Source: Labilithrix sp. (GTDB lineage Bacteria > Myxococcota_A > Polyangia > Polyangiales > Polyangiaceae). From it: a stretch of DNA of 64,000 nt. The stretch covers positions 1,146,583 to 1,210,582 of the forward strand of contig JAXLYU010000005.1 of assembly GCA_046351255.1 (NCBI GenBank), in the 5' to 3' direction. Position numbers and translations under genes: made by a program. The notes under the pieces are model-generated. The model worked only from the letters and a program-made list of their open reading frames with translations. It was not told the origin of the DNA and did no database searches. How positions within the stretch are numbered: position 1 is the stretch's first letter; each line of letters opens with the position of its first letter. Positions 1 to 25,687 of this stretch are shown piece by piece.

Positions 1-307
1 TCGTGGTGACCTCGACGCGGTCGGCGAAGCGCTTGAAGGAGCGTGCGAGTGCCTTGAGCTGGTCCGTCTCGTCGTCGACGATCAGGAGGCGCTTCTTGGC
101 CGCATCCTGGAGGTCGACGGGGATCGGCATCTCATGACGCACGAGAAACGACACGAGGTCAGCCGCGCGGATGCGACGGTGACCGCCGGGCGTGCGGAAC
201 GCCAGGAGCAGGCCGTCGTCCACCCACTTCTTGACCGAGCTGGGGTTGACCTGGAGGAGCTCCCCGACCTCGGATGAAGTTAGAAGTTGGTCGCTGACGA
301 TTTTCAC
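1..307 (-). CDS. Response regulator (5' part only; gene continues beyond the window start): excisionase/MerR-like HTH followed by a receiver domain
   Basis: Minus-strand translation from GTG at 307 gives VKIVSDQLLTSSEVGELLQVNPSSVKKWVDDGLL... (HTH), then ...KKRLLIVDDETDQ (receiver start). AAGGAG Shine-Dalgarno 6 nt upstream of the GTG. No stop before position 1. Confidence 0.6.
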   Translation of the reverse strand, partial: MKIVSDQLLTSSEVGELLQVNPSSVKKWVDDGLLLAFRTPGGHRRIRAADLVSFLVRHEMPIPVDLQDAAKKRLLIVDDETDQLKALARSFKRFADRVEVTT

Positions 308-569
308 GGATTACTCTCCTTACTCGGAATGCGAGACTTCGTCAAAACGAAATCGACAAAATCGGCTGATGCGCTTTTTGCGCCTTGAAAACGGGAAAAG
401 ATGTCGCGGTTAGGCCCGTGGCGCTCTGGGCAACCCGTGAGCATATGGCTGAATCCGGGAAATTTCGCCGGAGAAATCGACGGCGGGGGAGGTCCCCGGT
501 GAGCGACCGCTCAATCGTTAAATTGCTGGAAAACCAAAGAGTTTTCCGCGGACGACCTTCGGCTCGCCC

Positions 570-1757
570 TCACCAGCTCTGTGTCGATGGAGATATCGCA
601 GGCGCCGGGCGCCCGAGGAAATAGCCCTGGAGGTAGTCGCAGCCGAGATCGAGCAGGCAGGCAAGCTCGGCCGCGGTCTCGATCCCCTCGGCCACGACGC
701 GCATGTCGAGGTCCCGGCAGAGACGGCTCATCGAGCCCACGATCTGCCGCTTAACCGTGCTTTTCTCGATATCTCGGATGAGCGTCATGTCGAGCTTCAC
801 GACCTCGGGCTCGAACGTGGCGAAGCTGGTGAGGCCCGCGTAGCCGGCCCCCAGGTCGTCGATTGCAATTTTGAACCCCCTCCGGCGGAGCTCGGCGGCC
901 CGGTGCTTGGTCTCCGTGAGATCATCGAGGGCTGCACGCTCCGTGATCTCGAGAACGACGCGGTGGGCGATCTTCGTAAGGGGCGCGGCCCGATCGTAGA
1001 GGTCGGCGTCGAGCAGGTCGGCGGGATGCAAGTTCACGAAAAGAAGGGAGTCTTCGTCGGCGGCATGGAACCCCTCCACGGCGTGAGCGCGGACCCGACG
1101 GCCGAGGTCGTGGAGACGCCCCAGACGCTCGGCGGCCTCGAGGACCGCGCCGGGGTGGGGAAGGGAGGGCTCCTTCGTCCGCATCAGGCACTCGTAGCCC
1201 GCCGTCTTCCTCGTCCGACTATCCACGATGGGCTGGTAGACCATCGTGAGCGAGTCGAGCGCCCGATTGAGGCTCGTGTGGAGCCCGGCACGGTCGCCCG
1301 GCAGGATCGAGCCGCCGAGACCGGCGAGCGCGGCCTCCCGCTTGGTGCGCGCCAGGCGCGCGAGCTTGCCGGCCCGGAGGAGCGTCTGCTCGAGCTGGTC
1401 GTGGGAGAACGGCTTCTGGAGGTAGGTGAGCGCGCCAAGCTCGAGCGCAGCCACTGCCGTCTCGATGCTCGGCTGCCCCGTCATCAGCACGACCGGGACG
1501 TCCAGGTCGTACGAGCGCACGACGCGCAGGAGCTCCACACCCGACATCCCTGGGAGGTTGATGTCGCTGAGGACGCCGTCGAAGGTCTGGTTGACGAGCA
1601 GCTCGGCTGCGGCGGTGCCGTCACCGACCGAGACGACGTCGAAGTTTCCGTTGAGGCGACGCGCGAGCACCGTCCGGAGGCCGTCGTCGTCTTCGACGAT
1701 GAGGAGACGTGGGCGCTCACGATCGGGGGTGGTGGTCATGGCAATCCAATTTCTCAC
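570..1757 (-). CDS. Response regulator receiver + EAL domain (c-di-GMP phosphodiesterase)
   Basis: LLIVEDDDGLRTVLARRL...DINLPGMSG (receiver), then QPIVDSRTRKTAGYECLMR...EITERAAL...IAIDDLGAGYAGL...KLD (EAL signature motifs). Alternative ATG start at 1739. Confidence 0.85.
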   Translation of the reverse strand: MRNWIAMTTTPDRERPRLLIVEDDDGLRTVLARRLNGNFDVVSVGDGTAAAELLVNQTFDGVLSDINLPGMSGVELLRVVRSYDLDVPVVLMTGQPSIETAVAALELGALTYLQKPFSHDQLEQTLLRAGKLARLARTKREAALAGLGGSILPGDRAGLHTSLNRALDSLTMVYQPIVDSRTRKTAGYECLMRTKEPSLPHPGAVLEAAERLGRLHDLGRRVRAHAVEGFHAADEDSLLFVNLHPADLLDADLYDRAAPLTKIAHRVVLEITERAALDDLTETKHRAAELRRRGFKIAIDDLGAGYAGLTSFATFEPEVVKLDMTLIRDIEKSTVKRQIVGSMSRLCRDLDMRVVAEGIETAAELACLLDLGCDYLQGYFLGRPAPAISPSTQSW

Positions 1758-1913
1758 CTTCCCACCTGCAAGAGTCGTTCGTCAATCTGGGAAAGTCGTG
1801 GAAAGTATCCGCCACCGGAGAGGTGGGACTTTTGACCTCGTCGTTCATGGCAGGCGGGTGTCAGACACGACCCGCTTAAGCCGATCGAGCGATGGACGTT
1901 CTCTCTCAACACC

Positions 1914-2258
1914 ATGGACTCGTCCGAACGCCGTCGAGATATCCGCGCTCACGCTTCCCCGCCCGTCGAGATCATCCGCATCGGTTCCCTCGAAAAAGTC
2001 GAGGCACTGAACGTCAGCTTTCGCGGCCTCTTCCTGCGCATGGATGTGCCGCCCCAGCTCAACGAGCTCCTGAAGCTTCGGGTCCAGATCCCCGGTCGAA
2101 TGATCACGCTCAACGTGGTGTCGGTCCGGGTCGTCACCGACGCCCACGGCCGGGCTGGCGTCGGCGTGAAGTTCTTCGCGCTCGCCGGCGATGAGAAGCG
2201 CCAGTGGGAGTCGTACATCACCTCCCTCGTCGCTCATCACCGAAGGCAGGCCGCGTGA
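1914..2258 (+). CDS. PilZ domain protein (c-di-GMP receptor-like)
   Basis: RRRDIRAH (RxxxR motif) and NVSFRGLFL (D/NxSxxG motif), the two PilZ signatures. 114 aa. Confidence 0.65.
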   Translation: MDSSERRRDIRAHASPPVEIIRIGSLEKVEALNVSFRGLFLRMDVPPQLNELLKLRVQIPGRMITLNVVSVRVVTDAHGRAGVGVKFFALAGDEKRQWESYITSLVAHHRRQAA

Positions 2259-2387
2259 CGGTCGACCCGCCAGGGCCATGACGATCGCCAGACGGATGAC
2301 AGGGTCACAAGGAACGACACTCACGAGATCTCGACGACTTGCACGAAAAGATGGACGGCACGGCGGCTGCTTCAGGAGGTCATCACG

Positions 2388-3050
2388 ATGGAACAGACCT
2401 CTCTCTCCGGGAACAACGAAGGCTTCGCCAGCCACATGCACCTCGTGCTTGGAATCGTTGCCGACTTCATGCGCCGCGTCCCTCGCAGCGTTCAGCGCGA
2501 GGACCTCGTGGCCGCTGGCTCCGTGGGTCTTCTCCATGCTCTCCGTTCGAAGAAGCACACCTGCCCGGAGATGCTCGCCGCTTACGCGCGCATCCGCATC
2601 CGTGGCGCCATCATCGACGAGCTTCGCCGTCATGACTGGTCGCCCCGCCGCCGCCGCACCCCGCAGACCGCGAACGTGCCGGCGCCCGTGATCAAGAACA
2701 TGCCCGCGTCCGCCTCCGCCCCTGCGTGCGCCGAGAAGCCCGAAGGCGTCGTCGTCATCGGCTTCGACGACCTCCCCCCGACGCACTCGCTCCGCGAGGA
2801 AGGTCCGTCGCCGTACGAGCAGGTGCAGACCAATCGCGAGAACGGCGACCTCCGCCGCGCCGTCGGCAAGCTCCCCGCTCGCGAGCGCAGCATCATCCAG
2901 ATGCGCTACTTCGAGGACCAGTCCTCGAAGGCGATCGCGACCTCGATGGGCCTCAGCGAGGCCCGCGTCTCCCAGCTCCTCGCCCGCGCCACGTCGCAGC
3001 TCAAGACGCTGCTCGTGGAGGCGCAGAACGACGTCCACCTCGCGGCCTGA
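2388..3050 (+). CDS. Sigma-70 family RNA polymerase sigma factor, FliA/WhiG (sigma-28)-like
   Basis: Region 2 DLVAAGSVGLLHALRS...AYARIRIRGAIIDELRRH. Region 4 LPARERSIIQMRYFEDQSSKAIATSMGLSEARVSQLLARATSQLK. AGGAGG Shine-Dalgarno 8 nt upstream of the ATG. Confidence 0.8.
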   Translation: MEQTSLSGNNEGFASHMHLVLGIVADFMRRVPRSVQREDLVAAGSVGLLHALRSKKHTCPEMLAAYARIRIRGAIIDELRRHDWSPRRRRTPQTANVPAPVIKNMPASASAPACAEKPEGVVVIGFDDLPPTHSLREEGPSPYEQVQTNRENGDLRRAVGKLPARERSIIQMRYFEDQSSKAIATSMGLSEARVSQLLARATSQLKTLLVEAQNDVHLAA

Positions 3051-3676
3051 TGCAGTCGGTGGAGCAACAGATCCGAGCGCTGGTCGTCGACGACGAGAGC
3101 GGCATTCGACAGGCGGTGGCTCGCGTTCTTCGCAACGCCGGCCTCGAGACGCTGACGGCGGAGAGCGGCGAAGACGCGCTCCTGATCCTCCAGAGAGAGA
3201 GGATCGACGTGGCGGTGCTCGACATCCGCATGCCGGGGCTCACCGGGATCGACGTGCTCGCTCGCATGAAGGAAGACCGGCACCCGGCAGAGGTGGTCAT
3301 GATGACCGCGCACGCGGACGCCGAGCTCCATTTGAGCCTCACGAAGCAGGGCGCCTACGCCCTCGTGACGAAGCCGTTCCAGGCGAACGAGGCCATCGTC
3401 ATCGAAGTGGTGAACGCTGCGGCGTACAAGCGTCTCCGCGAGCAGAGCGAGCGCTTGCAGGTGCAGCTCGCCGATCGCTCGATCGCCGGAACCGTGACGA
3501 GCCTCGCGCTCCACGAGCTCGCGTTCGCAGAGGCCAAGAAGCGCGTCGTGAACGAGTTCACCAACGCCTACGTGAAGGCGCTGCTCGAAGCGACGAACAA
3601 CAATGTCTCCGAGGCGGCGCGTCGCTCGGGGCTGGATCGCTCGAACTTCCGCCGCCTCTTCCGCAAGCCGGCGTAA
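3050..3676 (+). CDS. Response regulator: receiver + Fis-type HTH (NtrC-like without AAA+ domain)
   Basis: ATG overlaps the upstream stop (ATGA at 3048-3052). LVVDDESGIRQAV...DIRMPGLTGIDVL (receiver). C-terminal NVSEAARRSGLDRSNFRRLFRK (Fis HTH). Confidence 0.8.
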   Translation: MQSVEQQIRALVVDDESGIRQAVARVLRNAGLETLTAESGEDALLILQRERIDVAVLDIRMPGLTGIDVLARMKEDRHPAEVVMMTAHADAELHLSLTKQGAYALVTKPFQANEAIVIEVVNAAAYKRLREQSERLQVQLADRSIAGTVTSLALHELAFAEAKKRVVNEFTNAYVKALLEATNNNVSEAARRSGLDRSNFRRLFRKPA

Positions 3677-3697
3677 CGCGAGCTCCGAAAGCGAAAA

Positions 3698-3724
3698 GGA
3701 GCGACGCTCACGAAGCGTTGCTCC
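3698..3724. terminator. Bidirectional hairpin terminator between convergent genes
   Basis: GGAGCGACGCT-cacga-AGCGTTGCTCC: 11-bp stem (one G-U pair) with a 5-nt loop, in the 76-bp gap between the + gene ending at 3676 and the - gene ending at 3753. Confidence 0.45.
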
Positions 3725-3752
3725 TGATGGCATTCGAGCGAGGCCGCTTCTT

Positions 3753-4784
<1,032 letters not shown>

Positions 4785-4803
4785 GATTGGCTCGTCTGGT
4801 CGA

Positions 4804-5580
4804 TCAGCTACCGAAGCCGGCCTCGAGACCGGGATAAGGAAGAGTGAAGCGGCGGCCCGACGCCGGCGCCGGCGCGTGAGCCGGGCAATACCCGCGCTTC
4901 TTCGCGCTGGGATCGAAGCTCACGTACGAGCACGTCGTACAGATCGCGAGGTAGCTCTCGTAGTCGCCCGGGCGCAGGAGGTAGTCGACCGCGAAGAGGG
5001 AGAGGACGCGATCGGCGAGGCGCGTCGTGCCCGCGGCGGGCGCCCAGGTCGGCTCGCGATATCCGTCTTCCACCCGAGCCACCGAGCCCGCGATGAGCGC
5101 GCGGAGCACGAAGCTCGAAGACTGATCGCCGCTGAGCTGAGCCAGGTTCTCGAGCACCTCCGTACGGGCGGCCCGCAAGATGCGATCGACGAGGCGGACG
5201 TCGATCTGCTTGATGAGCGGCACATCGCCGGCGATCGACGGATGGCTCTCACGCTTGGCATAGCGCGTGGCGAGGGCATAGGGGCCCGAGAGCCACATGG
5301 CGAGCTCGGGCTTCCCCCAGGTCGGCGACTCGTTCATGAACTGGACCGCGGTCTCGCGGCAGGAGCGGGCCATGTCGGCGCCGCTGAAGCCTGGCGGAAG
5401 AACAACGACGGTATCGCGGGGACCTTCCTGCGAGGGAGGTAGGGAGTGCACTTCGCTCATGATCGGAAAGGAGCAGGCATTCGCCGTACCAACGCCCGGT
5501 GTTCGTCCGATGACGAGGAACCGTCGCTCCGCCGACGCTGAGCCGTACCCCCATGACGCCTCGACGAGCAAAAGCGGCAT
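4804..5580 (-). CDS. Hypothetical protein with C-terminal Cys/His motif (CTTCSYVSFDPSAKKRGYCPAHA). Co-transcribed immediately upstream of the sigma-54 activator.
   Basis: High GC3 and protein-like composition on the minus strand; the overlapping plus-strand ORF is an Arg-rich artefact. 19-bp gap to the downstream activator gene. Start uncertain (alternative ATG at 5460). Confidence 0.5.
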   Translation of the reverse strand: MPLLLVEASWGYGSASAERRFLVIGRTPGVGTANACSFPIMSEVHSLPPSQEGPRDTVVVLPPGFSGADMARSCRETAVQFMNESPTWGKPELAMWLSGPYALATRYAKRESHPSIAGDVPLIKQIDVRLVDRILRAARTEVLENLAQLSGDQSSSFVLRALIAGSVARVEDGYREPTWAPAAGTTRLADRVLSLFAVDYLLRPGDYESYLAICTTCSYVSFDPSAKKRGYCPAHAPAPASGRRFTLPYPGLEAGFGS

Positions 5581-5587
5581 CGGTGGT

Positions 5588-5623
5588 TTGACGCTCGCGC
5601 CACGCGAATGACGAAAGCGTCAA
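5588..5623. promoter_or_regulatory. Inverted repeat TTGACGCT-N20-AGCGTCAA in a divergent intergenic region (candidate operator)
   Basis: Perfect 8-bp arms seen directly in the sequence between the minus gene ending at 5580 and the PilZ gene starting at 5740. Confidence 0.3.
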
Positions 5624-5739
5624 CCTCATGGCAACACGCGGTTTTTCTAGATTGTTTCTCAAGCTCGAGACCCTCTGACCGTTCCCCCTACGTAGAAACG
5701 CTGGCCGTCGTGAGCGGCCGTTCCGGAGGAGACAGGACG

Positions 5740-6129
5740 ATGGGTGCAGCGCTGAAGATCACGCCGGAAGAGGACTTTCGCGTTCGCGAAGACGAACGCA
5801 AGTCGCCCCGCGCGATCGCGTACCTCTGCATCGATCTGTGCTCCGAGCACAACTTCTGGACCGGGCTCACGATGAACATCTCCGAGGGCGGCGTCTTCGT
5901 CGCCACCCACGTCATGCTCCCTGCCGGCTCGCTCGTGGGCCTGCACCTCGAGCTGCCGAGTCACAAGCGCATCATGACGCTCGGCGAGGTCCGCTGGAGC
6001 CGCACGTACTCGGGTGACGACGATGTCCCGCCGGGCCTAGGCATCAAGTTCGTCGGCCTCGACCTCGCGAGCCTCGCCGCCATCCGCAAGTTCATCACGA
6101 CGATCCGCGAGCCGCTGCTCTTCGAATAG
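5740..6129 (+). CDS. PilZ domain protein
   Basis: ATG at 5740 with GGAGGA Shine-Dalgarno 10 nt upstream. EDERKSPR (RxxxR-like) and NISEGGVFV (DxSxGG). Confidence 0.65.
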   Translation: MGAALKITPEEDFRVREDERKSPRAIAYLCIDLCSEHNFWTGLTMNISEGGVFVATHVMLPAGSLVGLHLELPSHKRIMTLGEVRWSRTYSGDDDVPPGLGIKFVGLDLASLAAIRKFITTIREPLLFE

Positions 6130-6150
6130 CGCCAAACGCGCGCGAACCAG

Positions 6151-8610
6151 GTGGATTCCGCACCACTTCACGGCTACGAAGACGCCGTGAAGATTCGTCT
6201 CCTGCCCATCTTTGCCCTCCTCGCGACCATCGCGTTCGTCGCCGCCTGCGGTGACTCGAAGCCCGCGCAGTCGCCTGACCTCATCGTCGGCAAGGGTGGT
6301 GATGCAGGCGCCGAGCCGCCGCCGCCGCCGCCGCCCGCACAGGCGGAGGACGAGGCGGCCGTGCCCATCGTCGCGAACGACGCGACGCGAGGGAGCCGGC
6401 TCGCGACGGTGACGATCGTCGTCTTCTCGGACTTCCAGTGTCCGTTCTGTTCGCGTGTGGTGCCGACGCTCGACCGGCTCTACGAGCAGTACGGCGCCGA
6501 CCAGCTGCGCATCGTCTTCAAGAACAATCCGCTCCCGTTCCACCCCCAGGCGCGCATCGCGGCCGAGATCGGGCAGGGCGTCCTCGAGACGGCAGGCAAC
6601 GAGGCTTTCTGGCGTTTCCACAACGCGACGTTCGAGCACCAGAAGGAAATGGAGCCGGCGACGCTCCTGTCGTGGGCCGCTCAGGCCGGCGCGGACGAGC
6701 GCGCGATCAAGGAAGGCATCGAGCAGCACCGGTGGACGGCCAAGATCGAGGTCGACATCTCGGTCGCGCACGGTCGCGGCGCGAACGGCACGCCCACGTT
6801 CTTCATCGACGGCATCGAGCTCGTCGGCGCGCGCAGCATCGACGACTTCAAGGAGATCATCGACGAGGAGCTCGTGAAGAGCCGCGCGCTCGCGAAGGAG
6901 GGGATCCCTCGCGATCAGATCTACACGCGCCTCGCGGGTCAGAACTTCAAGTCGACGAAGGAGCGTCAGGAAGCGGACCGGCAGAAGCGCGACGTGGAGG
7001 AGCGCGAGCGAGCCGCGAGGGACGCGGCGGCCGCGAAGATCGTGCACAAGATCCCGGTCGGAAAGGCGCCGTCGCGCGGCAACCCGAACGCGCAGATCAC
7101 CATCATCGAGTTTGCCGACTACCAGTGTCCGTACTGCAAGGCATCCGAGAAGGTGATGGAGCAGATCAAGACGACGTACGGCGACAAGGTTCGCTTCGTC
7201 TGGCGCGACTTCCCGCTCTCGTTCCACCCACGCGCGGAGCCCGCGGCGGAGCTCGCGCGATTCGCGCTCGCGACGAAGGGCGAGGCGGGGTTCTGGGCGG
7301 TGCACGACGCGATCATGACCTCCACGCCGCAGCTCGAGGACTCGGATCTCGAGGCGGTCGCGACCGCGGCGAAGCTCGACGCGAAGAAGGCCATGGAGGC
7401 GGTGAAGGCGAAGTCCTACGCCTCGCAGATCGAGCTCGATCAGATCGTGGCGGACGACTTCGGCGTCGAGGGCACGCCCAACTTCTTCGTGAACGGTCGT
7501 CACGTGAAGGGAGCGAGGCAGTTCGATGCCTTCAAGGCCATCATCGACGAGGAGCTCGTGCGTGCGGACGAGCTCTTGAAAAAGGGCACCGCGAAGACGG
7601 CGCTCTACGAGGCGCTCATCAAGGACGGCGTCGCGCCCCCGGAGCCGCCGAAGAAGGCGGTCGCGGCCGTGCCTGCGAACGCGCCGTTCCGCGGCTCGCC
7701 GAACGCGAAGGTGGTCATCCAGGAGTTCGCGGACTTCCAGTGCCCGTTCTGCGCAAAGGTGAAGCCGACCATCGACGAGCTCCTGAAGTCGTACCCCGGC
7801 AAGATCAAGGTCGTGTGGCGCGACGATCCGCTCTCGTTCCACCCGGACGCGCCGCTCGCGGCGGAGGCGGCGCGCGAGGCCTACGCGCAGAAGGGGAACG
7901 AGGGCTTCAACAAGTTCACGGATCTCGTCTGGCAGCACCAGCAGGACCTGAAGCGGTCGGATCTCGAGAGCTATGCGCAGCAGGTCGGGCTCGACGCGAC
8001 GAAGTTCGCGGCCGCGCTCGACAAGCACACGCACAAGGCCACGATCGACGCGGAGCAGAAGGCGGCGAACGACGCGGAGCTCGGCGGCACGCCCGCGTTC
8101 TTCATCGGTCCTTATTTCATCTCCGGCGCGAAGGACCTGCCCAAGTTCAAGAAGCTGGTGAACCTCGCGCTCAACCTCCCGGCGGACAAGCTGACGCCGG
8201 AGGCCCCGAAGCCGAAGCCGGCGATCACGCCGCCGACCAACACGCCGCCGACCAACACGCCGCCGACCAACGTCGCCGCGCCGAAGAGCCTCGTGATCGC
8301 AGATACGCAGGTCGGCACGGGCCGCGAGGTGAAGTCGGGCGACAAGGTGAAGGTGCACTACGTCGGCCGTTTGCTCGACGGCACCGAGTTCGATGCGTCA
8401 CGGAAGCACGGGAATGATGGCTTCTCCTTCAAGGTTGGCGCAGGACAGGTGATCAAGGGATGGGATCAGGGCCTCGTCGGGATGAAGGTCGGAGGCAAAC
8501 GGAAGCTGACGATCCCGCCGGACCTTGGCTATGGTGACCGTGGTGCAGGCTCCGTCATTCCGCCGAAGGCGACGCTGGTCTTCGATATCGAGCTTCTGTC
8601 TATCGAGTAG
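6151..8610 (+). CDS. Lipoprotein: three tandem DsbA-like thioredoxin domains (CPFC, CPYC, CPFC) fused to a C-terminal FKBP-type peptidyl-prolyl isomerase
   Basis: Three repeats of ~200 aa, each with a CxxC in FADFQCPFC / FADYQCPYC / FADFQCPFC context and a ...FFI(N)G... motif. C-terminus [18 protein letters not shown]...[33 protein letters not shown] (FKBP). Lipobox FVAACG. A more likely start is the GTG at 6187 ([21 protein letters not shown]). Confidence 0.85.
8227..8271 (+). repeat. Perfect 3 x 15-bp tandem repeat (acgccgccgaccaac) encoding (TPPTN)x3 in the linker before the FKBP domain
   Basis: Seen directly: three identical 15-mers at 8227, 8242 and 8257. Confidence 0.9.
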
Positions 8611-9139
8611 CGTCGCGGTGCTGCTCGCGACGTCCGACGCGTCGGCGATCGAGCAGCAGCATCACCTCGGCCTCGCGCCGGCGTTCGGGATGCTGAACAT
8701 CAAGGACAAGTCGACGGTGAGCGCCGGCTTCGGCGGTGCGCTTCACTACGCGTACGGCCTGACCGACCAGTGGAACCTCACGCTCGACGCGAGCTCGGTC
8801 GTCGTGGCGGCGGATCAGAAGCTCGACCCTCCGGCAAACTTGCAGACGAGACCCGCCGCGGTCCATCAGGCGGGCGCCGGCGTGAGCTACGTGATCGACA
8901 TCCTGCGCGTCATCCCGTGGTTCGGGATCGAGGGTGGCGCGTGCCTCCTCACGGGCGGCACGCTCGATCGCGCCATCGTCGTGCCCGACCTCTCCGTGGG
9001 CGTCGGCCTCGACTACCAGCTCTCACGCACGTTCGCGGTCGGTGTTACAGGAAGGGAACATCTGATGATCAGCAAGCTCGACACGTATCCGAGCTATCTG
9101 ACCGCGATGCTGCGCTTCGAGGTCATGTGGGGCTACTGA
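8525..9139 (+). CDS. Putative outer-membrane beta-barrel-like protein (start ambiguous: ATG 8525 overlapping the upstream gene, or GTG 8618)
   Basis: Alternating hydrophobic beta-strand-like segments; ends in an aromatic residue (MWGY). The 8525 start gives an RRRRR + hydrophobic + ASA signal-peptide-like N-terminus. Confidence 0.4.
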
Positions 9140-10515: not shown

Positions 10516-11322
10516 GTGTACGATGGCGATGTGGGTCGATTCACGGCGGGGCTCGTCATCCTTGCGACGGCGGCGGCAGGTCTCGTCGCGCTGGCGTGCA
10601 GCTCGTTCAGCGCGGACGGTAAGAACGACTCAGCGACCGTCGGCGATGCCGGTCGTGTGACCACCCCGGACGGTGCGAGTGCCCCCAGCTTCTGCGCGAC
10701 GGTGGACGCCGCCGCTCTGGTGCTCTGCGACGATTTCGATGATCGGTTCGACGCTGCTCCCTGGAGGCCCGAGCGGGGGGATCCCCAAGCGGCGTACCAG
10801 ATCACCGCCGACGCCTCGACGTCACCGCCGTCGAGCCTGGAGGCGGTGATAGCGCCTGGTCCCGATCCGAGCCCGGATGCCCGCTACCGCTTCGAGCTAC
10901 CGGGCTCACCGAAGCACATCGTCGTCTCGGGGATGCTGCGCGTACCCACCCGCGAGCTCAACGCTGGTGGCGTGCATGTCGCCATGATCCAGGTCGGCGA
11001 CATAGGCGGGGTCTTTCTGAACCTGAACGGCGACGTCGCCGAGGTCGTGATTCAAGACGGCGGACGGGAGTTTCAGTCGAGCCCAGGGGTCGGAGTGGTC
11101 CCCGCTGACTGGACGTCGTTCACGCTCGCGGTCGATCTCACGATCCCTGCCGCGTCGCTGCGGCTGGGCGACAAGGCGCTTGGACGCGTGCCCCTCGACA
11201 CGTCGAAGGCGGCGATCGAAGCCTTCACCCCATCGATCTACCTCGGTATCTGGGAAGGAAAGGCGTCTTCTCAGGTTGGGTTCGTCGCGCAGTTCGATGA
11301 CGTCGCGATTCGCGCTTACTGA
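10516..11322 (+). CDS. Lipoprotein of unknown function
   Basis: GTG start giving VGRFTAGLVILATAAAGLVALACSS (lipobox LAC). The rest of the listed 850-aa ORF upstream is an Arg-rich artefact. Confidence 0.5.
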   Translation: MYDGDVGRFTAGLVILATAAAGLVALACSSFSADGKNDSATVGDAGRVTTPDGASAPSFCATVDAAALVLCDDFDDRFDAAPWRPERGDPQAAYQITADASTSPPSSLEAVIAPGPDPSPDARYRFELPGSPKHIVVSGMLRVPTRELNAGGVHVAMIQVGDIGGVFLNLNGDVAEVVIQDGGREFQSSPGVGVVPADWTSFTLAVDLTIPAASLRLGDKALGRVPLDTSKAAIEAFTPSIYLGIWEGKASSQVGFVAQFDDVAIRAY

Positions 11323-11368
11323 GCGCGACGCAAGACAGACGCGGACCAAGCGATCAGGAAGGCGTCGA

Positions 11369-12622
11369 CTACTTCTTCGCTTGTGGCTCGAGCGACGGGC
11401 GCTCGTTGCCGAGGCCGAAGCCGTCGTGCAGCGCGCGCACCGCGAGCTCCGTGTACTTCTGGTGCACGAGGCAGCTCACCTTGATCTCCGACGTCGAGAT
11501 GGCCTGGATGTTGATCCCCTCGGCCGCGAGGAGCTTGAACATCTTCGCCGCGATGCCCGCGTGAGAGCGCATGCCGAGACCGACGATCGAGACCTTCACG
11601 ACGTCCTCGTCGTAGCGGACCTCGGTGGAGCCGAGCTTCTTGCCGATCTCCTCGATCCACGGACGGGCGCGCTGGAGGTCGGTCTGCGCGAGCGTGAACG
11701 TGACGTCGGCGCGGTCGCTCGCGCCGGTGGTCGCGTTCTGGATGATCATGTCGACGGAGACGTTCTTCTCCGCGAGATGCGAGAAGAGCTCCGCGACGAC
11801 GCCCGGCTTGTCGTGCAGGCCGATGACGTTCACGCGCGCCTCGTTCTTGTCGTAGGCGACGCCCGCGACGACGACGTCTTCCAGTGACTTGTCCTCCCCC
11901 GTCACCCACGTGCCCTGGGCATCGCTGAACGAGCTACGAACATGAACCGGAACGCCGTACTTCATCGCAATCTCCACGCTGCGGATCTGCAGCACCTTCG
12001 CGCCAAGTGACGCGAGCTCGAGCATCTCCTCGTAGGAGATCTTCGGAATCTTCTTCGCCGACGCGCAGATGTTGGGGTCGGTGGTGTACACGCCGTCGAC
12101 GTCGGTGAAGATCTCGCAGGCGTCGGCCTTGATGGCGGCAGCCACCGCGACGGCGGAGGTGTCCGAGCCGCCACGACCGAGCGTCGTGATGTTGCCCGCG
12201 TCGTCCGCGCCCTGGAAGCCCGCGATGACCACGATCTCGCCGCGCTTGCAGGCGTCGCGGATCTTCTCGCTGTCGATCGACTTGATGCGCGCCTTGGTGA
12301 ACGCGTCGTCGGTGAGGACCTTCACCTGGTGGCCGAGGAGCGAGCGCGCCTTGCCGCCCTCCGCCTGGATCGCCATCGAGGTGAGGGCGCAGGTGACCTG
12401 CTCGCCCGTTGCTGCGATGACGTCCATCTCGCGCTGATCCGGCACCTGGGTGACGTCGTGCGCGAGCTTGAGGAGGCGATTCGTCTCGCCGCTCATCGCG
12501 GAGACGACGACGACCACGTCGTTGCCTTCCTTCTGCGTCGCGAGCGCGCGCTTCGCCACGTTCTTGATGCGGTCGACGGTGCCGACCGACGTGCCACCGA
12601 ATTTCTGAACGATGAGAGCCAA
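11369..12622 (-). CDS. lysC: Aspartate kinase
   Basis: LIVQKFGGTSV (amino-acid kinase N-terminus), VVVVSAMSGETN, C-terminal ACT-domain repeats (VNVIGLHDKPGV..., VKVSIVGLGMRSHAG). TTG start at 12622 gives ~417 aa. Confidence 0.9.
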   Translation of the reverse strand: MALIVQKFGGTSVGTVDRIKNVAKRALATQKEGNDVVVVVSAMSGETNRLLKLAHDVTQVPDQREMDVIAATGEQVTCALTSMAIQAEGGKARSLLGHQVKVLTDDAFTKARIKSIDSEKIRDACKRGEIVVIAGFQGADDAGNITTLGRGGSDTSAVAVAAAIKADACEIFTDVDGVYTTDPNICASAKKIPKISYEEMLELASLGAKVLQIRSVEIAMKYGVPVHVRSSFSDAQGTWVTGEDKSLEDVVVAGVAYDKNEARVNVIGLHDKPGVVAELFSHLAEKNVSVDMIIQNATTGASDRADVTFTLAQTDLQRARPWIEEIGKKLGSTEVRYDEDVVKVSIVGLGMRSHAGIAAKMFKLLAAEGINIQAISTSEIKVSCLVHQKYTELAVRALHDGFGLGNERPSLEPQAKK

Positions 12623-14016: not shown

Positions 14017-14089
<73 letters not shown>

Positions 14090-17218: not shown

Positions 17219-18898
17219 TCACGGCGTGCAGGGCTGGCAGCCCGGAGCGCCTTCGACCATGCACGGGAGGCCGTTCACCTTGATCGCCTGAGCGGCCGAC
17301 GGCTTGTCCTTGCAGTACGTCGAGGCCACGCAGTGCGCGGGGCAGCTCATCGCTTCGCCGCCGCTGCCCGGCTCCGTCGTGACCGGCGGCGCCGTCGTCG
17401 ACTCGAGATGGCCTTCGAGCTTGCCGCAGAGCGCCGCGTGCTGCGTCTGGAAGCGCGTCGGGTAGCCCTCGCGGTGATGCACGTCGTTCAGCTTCGCCTC
17501 CGGATACGGGATCGGGATCCAGCGGCCCTTCGCGTCCATCTCCGTGAAGAAGTTCTTGTCGAACTTGAAGCGCTCCGCGCGGCGCTCGTACTTGACGACG
17601 AGCCCGTCGGGGTTCGCGATCGTGCCCTTGATGTCCGAGAACTCCGGATCTGCGGAGAGGTGCTCGTAGAGCTTCATCGCGAGGAGCTCGTCGATGGTGG
17701 CGCTGCCGTCGAAATACGAGTTCCAGTACGAGCCGTCGATGTAGCCGACTTCCATTACCTTGCGGGTGGCGTCCTCGTTCGCATAACCCTCGTGGTTGTA
17801 CGAATACCGAATATCGACGTCGCGGACCTCGAGGCCGAAGAGCGAGAGCATGTCGCGGTAGTGGAACGTCTTGCCGCCGGCCACCGTCTTCGGCGTCCGG
17901 CCGATCGCGTCCTTGACCGCGGGTGTCCACCTCGCGGGCGTGCTCCCGGAGCGACACTCGAGCAGCTCGTGGAGGAAGAGCGCGCCGAATTTATCGAAGT
18001 TCGGGTGGCTCTCGATCTTCTCCGCTGCCGACTGCGCCATGAGGCGATTCATGAGCACGCCGAAGCGGAGCGACGGACGGAACGCGAACGAGCGCGAGAC
18101 GTTCTCGATCTGCTCGCTCGTGTCCTGGCGATATGGATAGCTCGGATAGACGTCGATCCCGCGGAGGCGCGCCTTCACGTTCGCCGCGTCGTAGAGCGGG
18201 GCATAACGCGGGAGGTGCTTCGTCGACACCTCGGTGCGGAACTGCTTGTAGTCGGAGCTCTCGCGGGCCTCGACCGGCTTCGACGTATCCGTCAGCTCGT
18301 CGTTGTCGCTGCCGTAGAACGACGGCCAGTCCGGGTACATCGCGAAGATGGGTCGGTCGTTCTTGCCGTGGCACTTCGAGCATTTGCGGCCCGGCTCCGG
18401 CATGTCCGCCTCGGTCTGCCACCTTGGCGCGTGCGCGTCGTCGAACTGGAGGGCCGACAGGTGGAAGCTCTTCGTCGCGGCGTCGAACTCGAGCACGTCG
18501 AGGCGGTTCGGCTCCGTCTGACCGGACGCGCCGCCGTTGTAGCTGATCGAGAAGCCGCTCCGCTCGTCCCACAGCACCGCGCGCGGCGCGGTCGGCGAGG
18601 ATGACTGCGAGACGACCTGCTCGATGAGGTGACCGTTCTCACCCTTGTAGAGACGACCGTGCTTCAGCGTGAAGTTGATCCGGAAGTCGCCGGGCAACGC
18701 CGCCGGGAGCTGATCGAGGGAGACGAGCGGCGCGGCCATCTGCGCGAGCCGGTCCCTCGACATCGGTGGTGAGCTCGGATCGATCAGCGCTCCGTCGTCC
18801 TGGGCCACGTCCTCGCCGTCCGTGGTGACAGCGCAGGCTGCGCCGAGGAGGCCGATACCGAAGGCCGCGAGGACAGAACGAAGACGCATGGCCTGCAT
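17219..18898 (-). CDS. Secreted lipoprotein with a single CxxCH haem-binding motif (putative c-type haem protein)
   Basis: Signal peptide with LGAAC lipobox; RKCSKCHGKND (CxxCH). 559 aa. Confidence 0.6.
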   Translation of the reverse strand: MQAMRLRSVLAAFGIGLLGAACAVTTDGEDVAQDDGALIDPSSPPMSRDRLAQMAAPLVSLDQLPAALPGDFRINFTLKHGRLYKGENGHLIEQVVSQSSSPTAPRAVLWDERSGFSISYNGGASGQTEPNRLDVLEFDAATKSFHLSALQFDDAHAPRWQTEADMPEPGRKCSKCHGKNDRPIFAMYPDWPSFYGSDNDELTDTSKPVEARESSDYKQFRTEVSTKHLPRYAPLYDAANVKARLRGIDVYPSYPYRQDTSEQIENVSRSFAFRPSLRFGVLMNRLMAQSAAEKIESHPNFDKFGALFLHELLECRSGSTPARWTPAVKDAIGRTPKTVAGGKTFHYRDMLSLFGLEVRDVDIRYSYNHEGYANEDATRKVMEVGYIDGSYWNSYFDGSATIDELLAMKLYEHLSADPEFSDIKGTIANPDGLVVKYERRAERFKFDKNFFTEMDAKGRWIPIPYPEAKLNDVHHREGYPTRFQTQHAALCGKLEGHLESTTAPPVTTEPGSGGEAMSCPAHCVASTYCKDKPSAAQAIKVNGLPCMVEGAPGCQPCTP

Positions 18899-19044
18899 TC
18901 AGCATCATGTATGCCACTGTAGGTGGGTCGGGGTGATGGGATCGATCGTGCGAAATCGCGGCTGAAAACCGCTGATTCCGTCCTTGCCGGAACCGCCCCT
19001 GGTGTCCCGATCGTGCGACGCTGATCCACGATCGACGCCCAGCT

Positions 19045-25610: not shown

Positions 25611-25687
25611 CGGGGCGTCGCACAGCCTGGTAGTGCACGAGCTTTGGGTGCTCGTTGTCGTGGGTTCAAATCCCTCCGCCCCGACCC
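25611..25687 (+). tRNA. tRNA-Pro (anticodon TGG)
   Basis: Acceptor cggggcg/cgccccg (7/7 pairs), D-arm gcac-agcctggta-gtgc, anticodon stem cgagc/gctcg with loop ttTGGgt, T-arm gtggg-ttcaaat-ccctc (one U:U mismatch), discriminator A. Confidence 0.8.

Follow-up and report, generated by a model that had tools for sequence, protein, structure and literature searches.

The question raised by the locus studied here is whether a run of neighbouring regulatory genes forms one circuit and how that circuit would be wired. The locus lies at the start of a 64,000-nucleotide stretch of Labilithrix sp. DNA (contig JAXLYU010000005.1), called here, at its full length, the window. It encodes a sigma factor derived from the FliA/WhiG (sigma-28) family, a response regulator (RR) in which a receiver (REC) domain is joined to a helix-turn-helix (HTH) of the HTH_8 family, a sigma-54 activator without receiver domain, a protein with a cysteine motif (Cys protein) co-transcribed with the activator, two PilZ proteins, a REC-EAL protein, and a lipoprotein with three DsbA-type domains and one FKBP domain (Table 1). 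A previous sequence-only reading had considered eight consecutive genes as signalling components of a self-contained switch responsive to cyclic di-GMP (c-di-GMP). With a probability that we estimate at about 0.6, the locus is a lineage-specific cassette of the Labilithrix group that works as a two-tier cascade, from sigma-54 to the sigma-28-like factor. The idea of one circuit is thus retained, in a more specific form: putative sigma-54 promoters that are conserved, a shared upstream motif and sigma-28-type promoters link the genes in a cascade. Its control by c-di-GMP stays an inference; nothing was found to tie the PilZ proteins or the EAL enzyme physically to the sigma factor.

Gene order and upstream sequences in related loci

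The window was compared with about 50 related loci (designated L plus a number), and the alignment of intergenic regions was the most informative step. The window's sigma protein is identical to one annotated in a metagenome-assembled genome (MAG) of Labilithrix sp. (Myxococcota) and recurs on 22 contigs from several independent assemblies of activated-sludge and other metagenomes, so the sequence is not an assembly oddity. When one genome per species was scanned for orthologues of the sigma factor, true orthologues (44–76% identity) were found in 19 loci only, belonging to MAGs of Labilithrix, "Polyangiaceae" and "Myxococcales" and to the cultured Labilithrix luteola; all other matches (≤35% identity) were ordinary FliA proteins of flagellated bacteria. 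A tblastn search with the proteins of the window located the complete block from REC-EAL to DsbA-FKBP in seven representative genomes of GTDB species (L007–L012 and L014), and an exact-protein look-up recovered three closer metagenome relatives (L085–L087) with the same gene order. The core formed by the sigma gene with its downstream RR gene and by the activator with the Cys protein is kept in the majority of the more distant loci, down to 44% sigma identity, and the Cys protein followed by the activator was seen on sixteen further metagenome contigs. The L. luteola locus (L017) has the sigma, a full-length RR, the activator and the Cys protein, and PilZ-1, PilZ-2 and DsbA-FKBP were not found at it. 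As the block is syntenic across species, the clustering of these genes goes beyond chance. PilZ-1 was rejected as a universal neighbour of the sigma gene: it adjoins this gene only in the Labilithrix sub-clade, and distant loci carry at that place HlyD-like, TolC-like or small secreted proteins.

Concerning the sigma-54 (−24/−12) promoters, a scan of the window alone with the consensus gave counts not above chance, so that the case for them is made by conservation. Upstream of the sigma ATG, the pattern GGCA.G....TGC is invariant in ten aligned loci with flanks about 50% identical. Among distant orthologous loci, TGGCAC-N5-.TGCT precedes the sigma gene in 9 of the 12 examined, including Labilithrix luteola, and it is absent from the two nearest non-orthologous loci, which are those of ordinary FliA. 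Upstream of the Cys/activator operon, TGG.A.......TGC is invariant in 11 loci, and of 18 orthologous loci, made up of the window and 17 independent metagenome contigs, 16 have the promoter. Both this promoter and the palindrome described below are missing from that position in two distant paralogues without activator.

The two putative sigma-54 promoters share an upstream motif. Direct repeats of GCCA-N6-TGACG stand 60–120 bp further upstream of the sigma-gene promoter, two of them in the clade of the window and three in that of L007, and one or two copies were present in 11 of the 12 distant loci examined (at 70–120 bp). A palindrome built from the same half-site stands upstream of the Cys/activator operon. 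The exact motif has three matches in 64 kb, all of them in these two upstream regions; an N7 spacing gave chance-level counts and was discarded, N6 being the one that fits. The repeats upstream of the sigma gene persist in L085, a locus that has lost the downstream RR, and this favours the receiver-less activator as the protein that most likely binds GCCA-N6-TGACG. A second sigma copy (69% identity; L013:8001-8594), located in the same MAG as L012 and without other island genes, also has its own putative sigma-54 promoter and two GCCA-N6-TGAC sites; it could be a paralogue or come from a mixed bin.

A different kind of conserved sequence precedes the two PilZ genes. CTTAA-N15-GACGTTC is invariant upstream of PilZ-1 in ten loci in which the rest of the intergenic region is 42% identical. 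Upstream of PilZ-2, the sequence is T(G/C/T)AAG-N14-(G/A)CCGTT, with T.AAG and CCGTT conserved in 11 loci and in further metagenome contigs. Both candidate promoters have identical spacing, which is also that of the Escherichia coli sigma-28 consensus, TAAAG-N14-GCCGATAA. The degenerate pattern CTNAA-N17-CGTT has three matches in the 64-kb window (background, 0.004 per 200 nt), of which two are these promoters; the third (18876-18902, minus strand) overlaps the ATG of a 559-aa open reading frame (ORF; 17219-18898) and was put down to chance. A sigma-28-like CTGAAG-N..-GCCGTT was observed in distant loci within the 3′ part of the activator gene or closely behind it (L017:12503, L019:13566, L021:7225 and L025:4728, all on the minus strand). 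It points to same-strand genes downstream of the activator, in L. luteola a histidine kinase gene (10563-12047), and may be an internal promoter. Another conserved block, CGTCAA..TGGGA...TCGTGGAAA, was noticed at 1778-1808, between REC-EAL and PilZ-1 and about 70 nt upstream of the PilZ-1 promoter.

The cascade that we propose would be as follows. In its first tier, the receiver-less activator would be made from a sigma-54-dependent operon, co-expressed with the Cys protein, and would bind both the palindrome upstream of its own operon, with auto-activation as a result, and the direct repeats upstream of the sigma gene. In the second tier, sigma-54 RNA polymerase would transcribe the gene of the FliA/WhiG-derived sigma. 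As the output, this sigma would read the T.AAG-N14-.(C/A)CGTT promoters of PilZ-1 and of the PilZ-2/DsbA-FKBP operon, so that the switch would act on c-di-GMP receptors and on oxidative protein folding in the periplasm. The divergent REC-EAL protein would lower c-di-GMP when phosphorylated. The REC-HTH_8 protein, on a path of reductive evolution, would most likely act at the ancestral sites, as a repressor or competitor under the control of phosphorylation or else as a classical activator.

The domains, the synteny, the conserved cis-motifs, the deletion series described below and the signatures of selection are observations; the pairing of proteins with motifs, the promoters, the proteolysis and any effect of c-di-GMP belong to the interpretation. 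Several points weigh against this interpretation. All the promoters are sequence predictions, and the site assigned to sigma-54 before the sigma gene carries two mismatches in the window and lacks significance by itself. The −10-like CGTT of the PilZ promoters differs from the canonical GCCGATAA, and the sigma factor that should read it has no domain 3. The sigma-54 and PilZ-1 sites lie 12–17 nt before start codons, which would imply leaderless or near-leaderless mRNAs. The protein binding GCCA-N6-TGACG could be the HTH of the RR or some other protein. Finally, no diguanylate cyclase and no demonstrated c-di-GMP target were found within the cascade or the island.

The sigma factor, the activator and the response regulator

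The sigma protein passes the generic sigma-70 superfamily model TIGR02937 (99 versus a cutoff of 42.9), and its best NCBIfam family is TIGR02479 (FliA/WhiG), with 118.1 bits, below the 189.6 cutoff, and with the match split in two separate stretches. Among PDB entries, FliA and WhiG match it best, the sigma3 position being left as a gap. Domain 3 is missing, as residues 90–131 form a Pro/Ala-rich linker of variable length among orthologues, after which there is a conserved VVV.GFDDLP...SP.E segment. The recognition residues of FliA type are present in the two remaining regions: in region 2 (Sigma70_r2, 33 bits), where residues 17–89 align to FliA 32–104, the 2.4/3.0 segment YARIRIRGAIIDELRRHDWSPR (..DELR..DW.PR type) is invariant in orthologues, and region 4.2 (Sigma70_r4, 51 bits) contains LSEARVSQL as in FliA.

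The other distinctive trait of this sigma is its C-terminus. All the 120 best homologues have a variable stretch followed by a final AA, which in 99 is part of LAA; the AA end is present in 19/19 genomic orthologues versus 1/45 ordinary FliA and, as a background, in 3 of 46 likely genes of the window. LAA is the end recognized by ClpX in ssrA-tagged proteins. The likeness to this degron (C-motif 1, ...LAA) extends to all 139 sigma and 10 of 11 PilZ-1 orthologues, which have a free C-terminal (L)AA, with the difference that here the tail is genetically encoded and not added by tmRNA. It seems reasonable to interpret that the sigma factor is probably short-lived, with constitutive turnover by way of a ClpXP-type degron.

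The receiver-less activator matches PF00158 with 231 bits and HTH_8 with 42.5 bits, and GAFTGA can be read in its translation. Its PDB matches are ZraR, NtrC1, FleQ, FlrC and PspF. The sole c-di-GMP motif inspected was that of FleQ type, consisting of an Arg directly after Walker A (FleQ R185) (PMC10714721). In the activator this segment reads GKELIVAALH, without the FleQ-type Arg, and a c-di-GMP site like that of FleQ, FlrA or VpsR was therefore rejected.

The Cys protein is the only one of the eight genes' products for which the earlier assignment to signalling did not hold, as it has no recognized signalling domain. It gave no match with Pfam or NCBIfam, nor did 40 members of its family under lenient Pfam conditions or ten distant members, and its profile had no match among PDB sequences. 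The ABATE/CGNR zinc-finger proteins (DUF1470; PDB 3h0n) were considered as its possible relatives, by sequence or by fold. Relatives are numerous: 68 were found by word-indexed search and 659 cluster representatives by a full scan with a hidden Markov model (HMM). Residues R35, W56, C174 and C177 are invariant, and C192 is nearly so and often followed by xxH, giving a CxxC...C(xxH) motif. Its likeliest role would be that of a trans-acting sensor or modulator of the activator, of zinc-ribbon type. Since the Cys protein is strictly paired with an activator devoid of sensory domain, a PspA/PspF-like relation is the best guess. In PspF/PspA and HrpS/HrpV, as here, an AAA+-HTH activator without sensory domain is accompanied by a small conserved protein under sigma-54 auto-regulation, which in the cassette is predicted.

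The RR gene was found to be the product of a recent deletion. In every locus outside the immediate clade of the window, the gene after sigma encodes a 507–585-aa NtrC-type protein with REC-AAA+-HTH_8 organization. Compared by tblastn to the L008 orthologue, the window RR keeps residues 10–158 and 442–507 and has lost 159–441, with an in-frame junction at 3475/3479; only REC and HTH_8 were found in it by Pfam, the entire AAA+ domain and the linker being gone. So, the window RR is not a bacterial enhancer-binding protein (bEBP) but a bEBP derivative, formed by in-frame deletion of AAA+ from an NtrC-type activator. The deletion junction of L087 is identical. In L086 only residues 431–511 are left, as a 95-aa stand-alone HTH_8 of about the size of Fis (6930-7217), 5 nt after the sigma stop; this deletion is independent, because L086 keeps residues that the window allele has lost. 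In L085 no RR remnant is left, and its place is taken by an unrelated Cys-rich protein of 94 aa that has a membrane helix at its C-terminus (8733-9017). The lineages of the window and L085–L087 group together in 200/200 bootstraps of a tree of REC-EAL, PilZ-1 and sigma, and the full-length group is sister to them. In L086, the HTH remnant is directly followed (7245-7400) by a markedly AT-rich stretch with an inverted repeat that interrupts surroundings of about 66% GC and may be a rearrangement scar or a mobile fragment. The full-length NtrC-type orthologues (e.g. L008:8660-10219) show GAFT(T/S)A in place of the canonical GAFTGA, and the ancestral protein may have been already an atypical activator.

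The deletion series bears directly on the proposal that the AAA+-less RR is a dedicated partner of the sigma factor, acting as anti-sigma, co-activator or RssB-like adaptor in a c-di-GMP-responsive switch. In agreement with this, the RR gene follows the sigma gene in all the orthologous loci but L085 and the paralogue L013, and both genes overlap in the window, not by ATGA as previously read, but by one base in TGATG (3048-3052). The phospho-acceptor residues of REC are intact, and the LAA tail of sigma would suit a proteolysis mediated by an adaptor, as occurs with RssB and sigma-S. On the other hand, the overlap is not conserved (there is a 21-nt gap in L087), the ancestral partner was an ordinary NtrC-type activator provided with AAA+, and L086 and L085 retain, respectively, the HTH only and no RR with sigma genes that are intact and under purifying selection (ratio of non-synonymous to synonymous substitution rates, dN/dS, 0.10–0.29). 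Furthermore, the most constrained part of the RR is its HTH, unnecessary for an anti-sigma. Because the RR is the in-frame deletion remnant of an NtrC-type activator, an anti-sigma role is unsupported, and the dedicated pair is altogether very unlikely. The contrary possibility, that the truncated REC-HTH_8 is a non-functional pseudogene remnant, finds some basis in the loss of AAA+ by at least three different lesions in one clade (internal deletion, N-terminal deletion and complete loss) and in a dN/dS two to three times that of neighbouring genes (0.10–0.14, versus L087 and L086). This is nevertheless unlikely in view of the open frame, the conserved catalytic residues of REC and the dN/dS itself, which is 0.32 overall (REC 0.28, HTH 0.24, with 0.07 for the HTH of the window versus L086). 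Also, forms of 200–208 aa make up six clusters at 90% identity, with five proteins in addition to that of the window, down to 74% identity. The truncated RR is predicted to be able to undergo phosphorylation and bind DNA, yet not to activate sigma-54, and most plausibly it persists as a DNA binder controlled by phosphorylation. It is not a member of the ActR/PrrA/RegA family, as NF033791 gave 60.6 bits versus a cutoff of 250 and matched the REC domain only; the architecture is shared and the descent different. VfmH, annotated as a "Fis-family RR", was dismissed as a precedent of truncation because it has an AAA+ domain.

Two further interpretations concern the cassette as a whole. One is that it is the relic of a flagellar hierarchy (FleQ/FlrA-like and FleR/FlrC-like activators, FliA, and a YcgR/FlgZ-like PilZ) rewired after loss of the flagellum. 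Its composition and its sigma-54 to sigma-28 order parallel the flagellar cascades of Vibrio and Pseudomonas, the nearest solved relatives of the sigma are FliA proteins, FleQ, FlrA and FlrC are among the PDB matches of the two activators, and the geometry of the promoters is that of sigma-28. Against it, ZraR and NtrC1 are matches of the activators no worse than the flagellar ones, so that there is no specific flagellar affinity, and neither FlgM nor any flagellar gene was found in the window or in any orthologous locus examined. A flagellar relic is thus rather unlikely; it is a matter of origin and not of mechanism, and as such it is compatible with the cascade model. The other interpretation is that the genes are side by side without forming a single system. 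In its favour, sigma-54 activators, PilZ proteins and response regulators abound in myxobacterial genomes, and PilZ-1 and REC-EAL are found with the sigma in the closer sub-clade only. This chance neighbourhood is largely refuted, and hardly credible now, as gene order is held across species at 65–76% sigma identity, and in the core to 44%, and common cis-motifs tie the transcription units together.

PilZ proteins, EAL enzyme and neighbouring genes

The gene map was obtained by ORF listing and translation, and domains were called with Pfam and NCBIfam HMMs (Table 1). All the domain content attributed before to the HTH-receiver, REC-EAL, PilZ, sigma, REC-HTH_8 and sigma-54 activator genes was confirmed. 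Gene calls and promoter positions led to correct the sizes formerly assumed for the Cys protein (218 aa, not 258) and PilZ-2 (129 aa, not 173).

Table 1. Genes and candidate control sequences at the start of the window.
Feature	Position	Strand	Remarks
HTH_17 (excisionase/MerR-like) plus receiver regulator	1–306	−	3′ part truncated at the edge of the window; full length 200 aa; Pfam HTH_17 39.8 bits; REC seen in the full gene of L001
REC-EAL response regulator	570–1739	−	389 aa; Pfam EAL 194 bits, Response_reg 85 bits
Candidate sigma-28-type promoter of PilZ-1, TTAAG-N14-GACGTTCT	1876–1901	+	
PilZ-1	1914–2258	+	114 aa, single-domain, C-terminus -QAA; Pfam PilZ 36.1 bits
Two direct repeats GCCA-N6-TGAC(G/A)	2269–2301	+	Candidate enhancer (upstream activating sequence) for the promoter of the sigma gene
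Putative sigma-54 (−24/−12) promoter of the sigma gene, CGGCACGGCGGCTGCT	2356–2371	+	17 nt before the sigma ATG
FliA/WhiG-derived sigma	2388–3050	+	220 aa; Sigma70_r2 and Sigma70_r4; C-terminus -LAA
REC-HTH_8 response regulator	3050–3676	+	208 aa; Pfam
Terminator-like hairpin between the convergent RR and activator genes	3704–3718	−	
Receiver-less sigma-54 activator (bEBP)	3753–4784	−	343 aa; Sigma54_activat, AAA_lid_14 and HTH_8
Cys protein, without family match	4804–5460	−	218 aa; first gene of the operon with the activator
Putative sigma-54 promoter of the Cys/activator operon, TGGTACGGCGAATGCC	5476–5491	−	16 nt ahead of the ATG of the Cys protein; lies where the Cys gene and PilZ-2 diverge
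Candidate palindromic enhancer, GCCA-N6-TGACGAAAGCGTCA-N6-TGGC	5599–5632		Upstream of two promoters, that of Cys/activator (by about 120 bp) and that of PilZ-2 (by about 40 bp)
Candidate sigma-28-type promoter of the PilZ-2/DsbA-FKBP operon, TCAAG-N14-ACCGTTCC	5659–5684	+	
PilZ-2, TIGR02266-type	5740–6129	+	129 aa; Pfam PilZ 45.1 bits, TIGR02266 60.3 bits
3×DsbA/Thioredoxin_4 plus FKBP_C lipoprotein	6151–8610	+	FKBP C-terminal; starts 21 nt after PilZ-2; Pfam

Both PilZ proteins score above the 22.5 cutoff and contain the RxxxR and (D/N)xSxxG motifs: RRDIR and NVSFRG in PilZ-1, conserved in 11 orthologues, and RKSPR and NISEGG in PilZ-2, which are also conserved in a protein highly conserved overall. 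Accordingly, both are predicted c-di-GMP receptors. A residue-by-residue alignment of the REC-EAL protein to the EAL enzyme 6ifq showed a complete signature (ExLxR, N, ExxE, DD, KxD, EGxE and QGY), from which an active c-di-GMP phosphodiesterase is predicted. The two PilZ proteins and the EAL enzyme appear to be functional, as outputs or neighbours of the cascade.

A more specific role can be conceived for PilZ-1, which has an ssrA-like -AA tail as the sigma does. As a PilZ-based counterpart of RsiG in the RsiG/WhiG pair of Streptomyces, PilZ-1 could be an anti-sigma or a stabiliser of the sigma predicted to transcribe its gene, which would establish a feedback: its c-di-GMP-bound form would sequester the sigma, or shield it from ClpXP, and the adjacent EAL enzyme, controlled by phosphorylation, would release it. 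This is distinctly doubtful; if it were true, the cassette would be a c-di-GMP-gated, proteolysis-timed switch from sigma-54 to sigma-28 in a non-flagellated bacterium.

The PilZ-2 gene leads, as had been read, into the triple-DsbA-FKBP lipoprotein gene, whose product matches in NCBIfam the Rcas_1661-family thioredoxin-like lipoproteins (201 bits) and the BamJ-type FKBP (72 bits). After it, the plus-strand ORF 8525-9139 (173–202 aa according to gene callers) has no Pfam match on record; its N-terminal segment is signal-like and its last residues, ...FEVMWGY, are of the kind typically found at the end of outer-membrane beta-barrels, and it is retained 3′ of DsbA-FKBP in both contigs that show the region (L001 and L085). 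At the other end, the HTH_17-REC regulator is, by comparison with its L085–L087 orthologues, the most constrained gene of the neighbourhood, with 96–99% amino acid identity and dN/dS 0.01–0.05 at dS 0.5–1.0. Beyond the upstream edge of the window, the same contigs encode a thiamine pyrophosphate enzyme, a ketoacyl-ACP synthase III and three hybrid histidine kinases. No riboswitch or other RNA was matched by Rfam in 1-9000 at E≤1, two tRNA genes (14017-14089 and 25611-25684) being the sole Rfam matches in the 64-kb window. The PADLOC models of defence systems gave nothing meaningful, and a scan of 1-8800 for sigma-70-type promoters gave none.

Known systems and meaning of the cassette

The cassette resembles the flagellar cascades of Vibrio cholerae (FlrA/FlrC/FliA) and Pseudomonas (FleQ/FleR/FliA) in combining a master sigma-54 activator of receiver-less type, an NtrC-type RR and a sigma of the sigma-28 family. 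As in Vibrio, a sigma-54 promoter, here a predicted one, precedes the gene of the latter, and as with FlgZ of Pseudomonas, a sigma-28-dependent PilZ protein, a PilZ gene stands behind a candidate sigma-28-type promoter. It differs from them in that there are no flagellar genes nor FlgM nearby, the putative outputs are PilZ proteins and a DsbA-FKBP lipoprotein, the sigma has an LAA tail and no domain 3, and the activator does not have the c-di-GMP-binding Arg of FleQ. To our knowledge, Labilithrix luteola and the host lineage are non-flagellated. A second parallel is found in Streptomyces, a bacterium of complex development and without flagella, in which WhiG is a sigma of the sigma-28 family put to another use and integrated in c-di-GMP signalling (PMC7005675; PMC12871210); WhiG chains are among the PDB matches of the sigma studied here. 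In Streptomyces, c-di-GMP acts via the coiled-coil anti-sigma RsiG (PMC7005675; PMC12871210), whereas no RsiG-like gene is evident in the cassette, which has PilZ and EAL proteins instead.

As for the RR, the direct fusion of REC to a Fis-type HTH in the window and L087 recalls the REC-HTH_8 proteins RegA, PrrA and ActR, and the free HTH_8 of about 95 aa in L086 recalls Fis. Fis- and RegA-type regulators have long been proposed to originate by domain loss of this sort, and Morett and Bork are said to have considered Fis, in 1998, as a descendant of the C-terminal domain of NtrC. The difference is that, in the present case, the full-length parent survives in sister species, and the deletions are recent and directly visible.

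The regulatory logic of the cassette is a known one. What is distinctive is a sigma-28-derived sigma, under putative sigma-54 control, with an LAA end and without domain 3, and a series of domain losses in an activator that can be followed by eye. Literature searches returned nothing on this sigma family or on sigma factors of Labilithrix. The predicted promoters, enhancer motif and outputs provide a concrete wiring diagram for an uncharacterised family of myxobacterial alternative sigma factors, one member of which is found in the cultured Labilithrix luteola DSM 27648. It would be the second case, after WhiG of Streptomyces, of a flagellar-type sigma re-used outside motility, and the universal LAA end suggests an alternative sigma that is unstable by design. 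Close relatives display the stepwise change from an NtrC-type activator to REC-HTH, then to a free Fis-sized HTH, and finally to nothing. Current concepts are not overturned by these data; their value lies in a variant architecture and in an evolutionary snapshot of how such regulators lose their domains.

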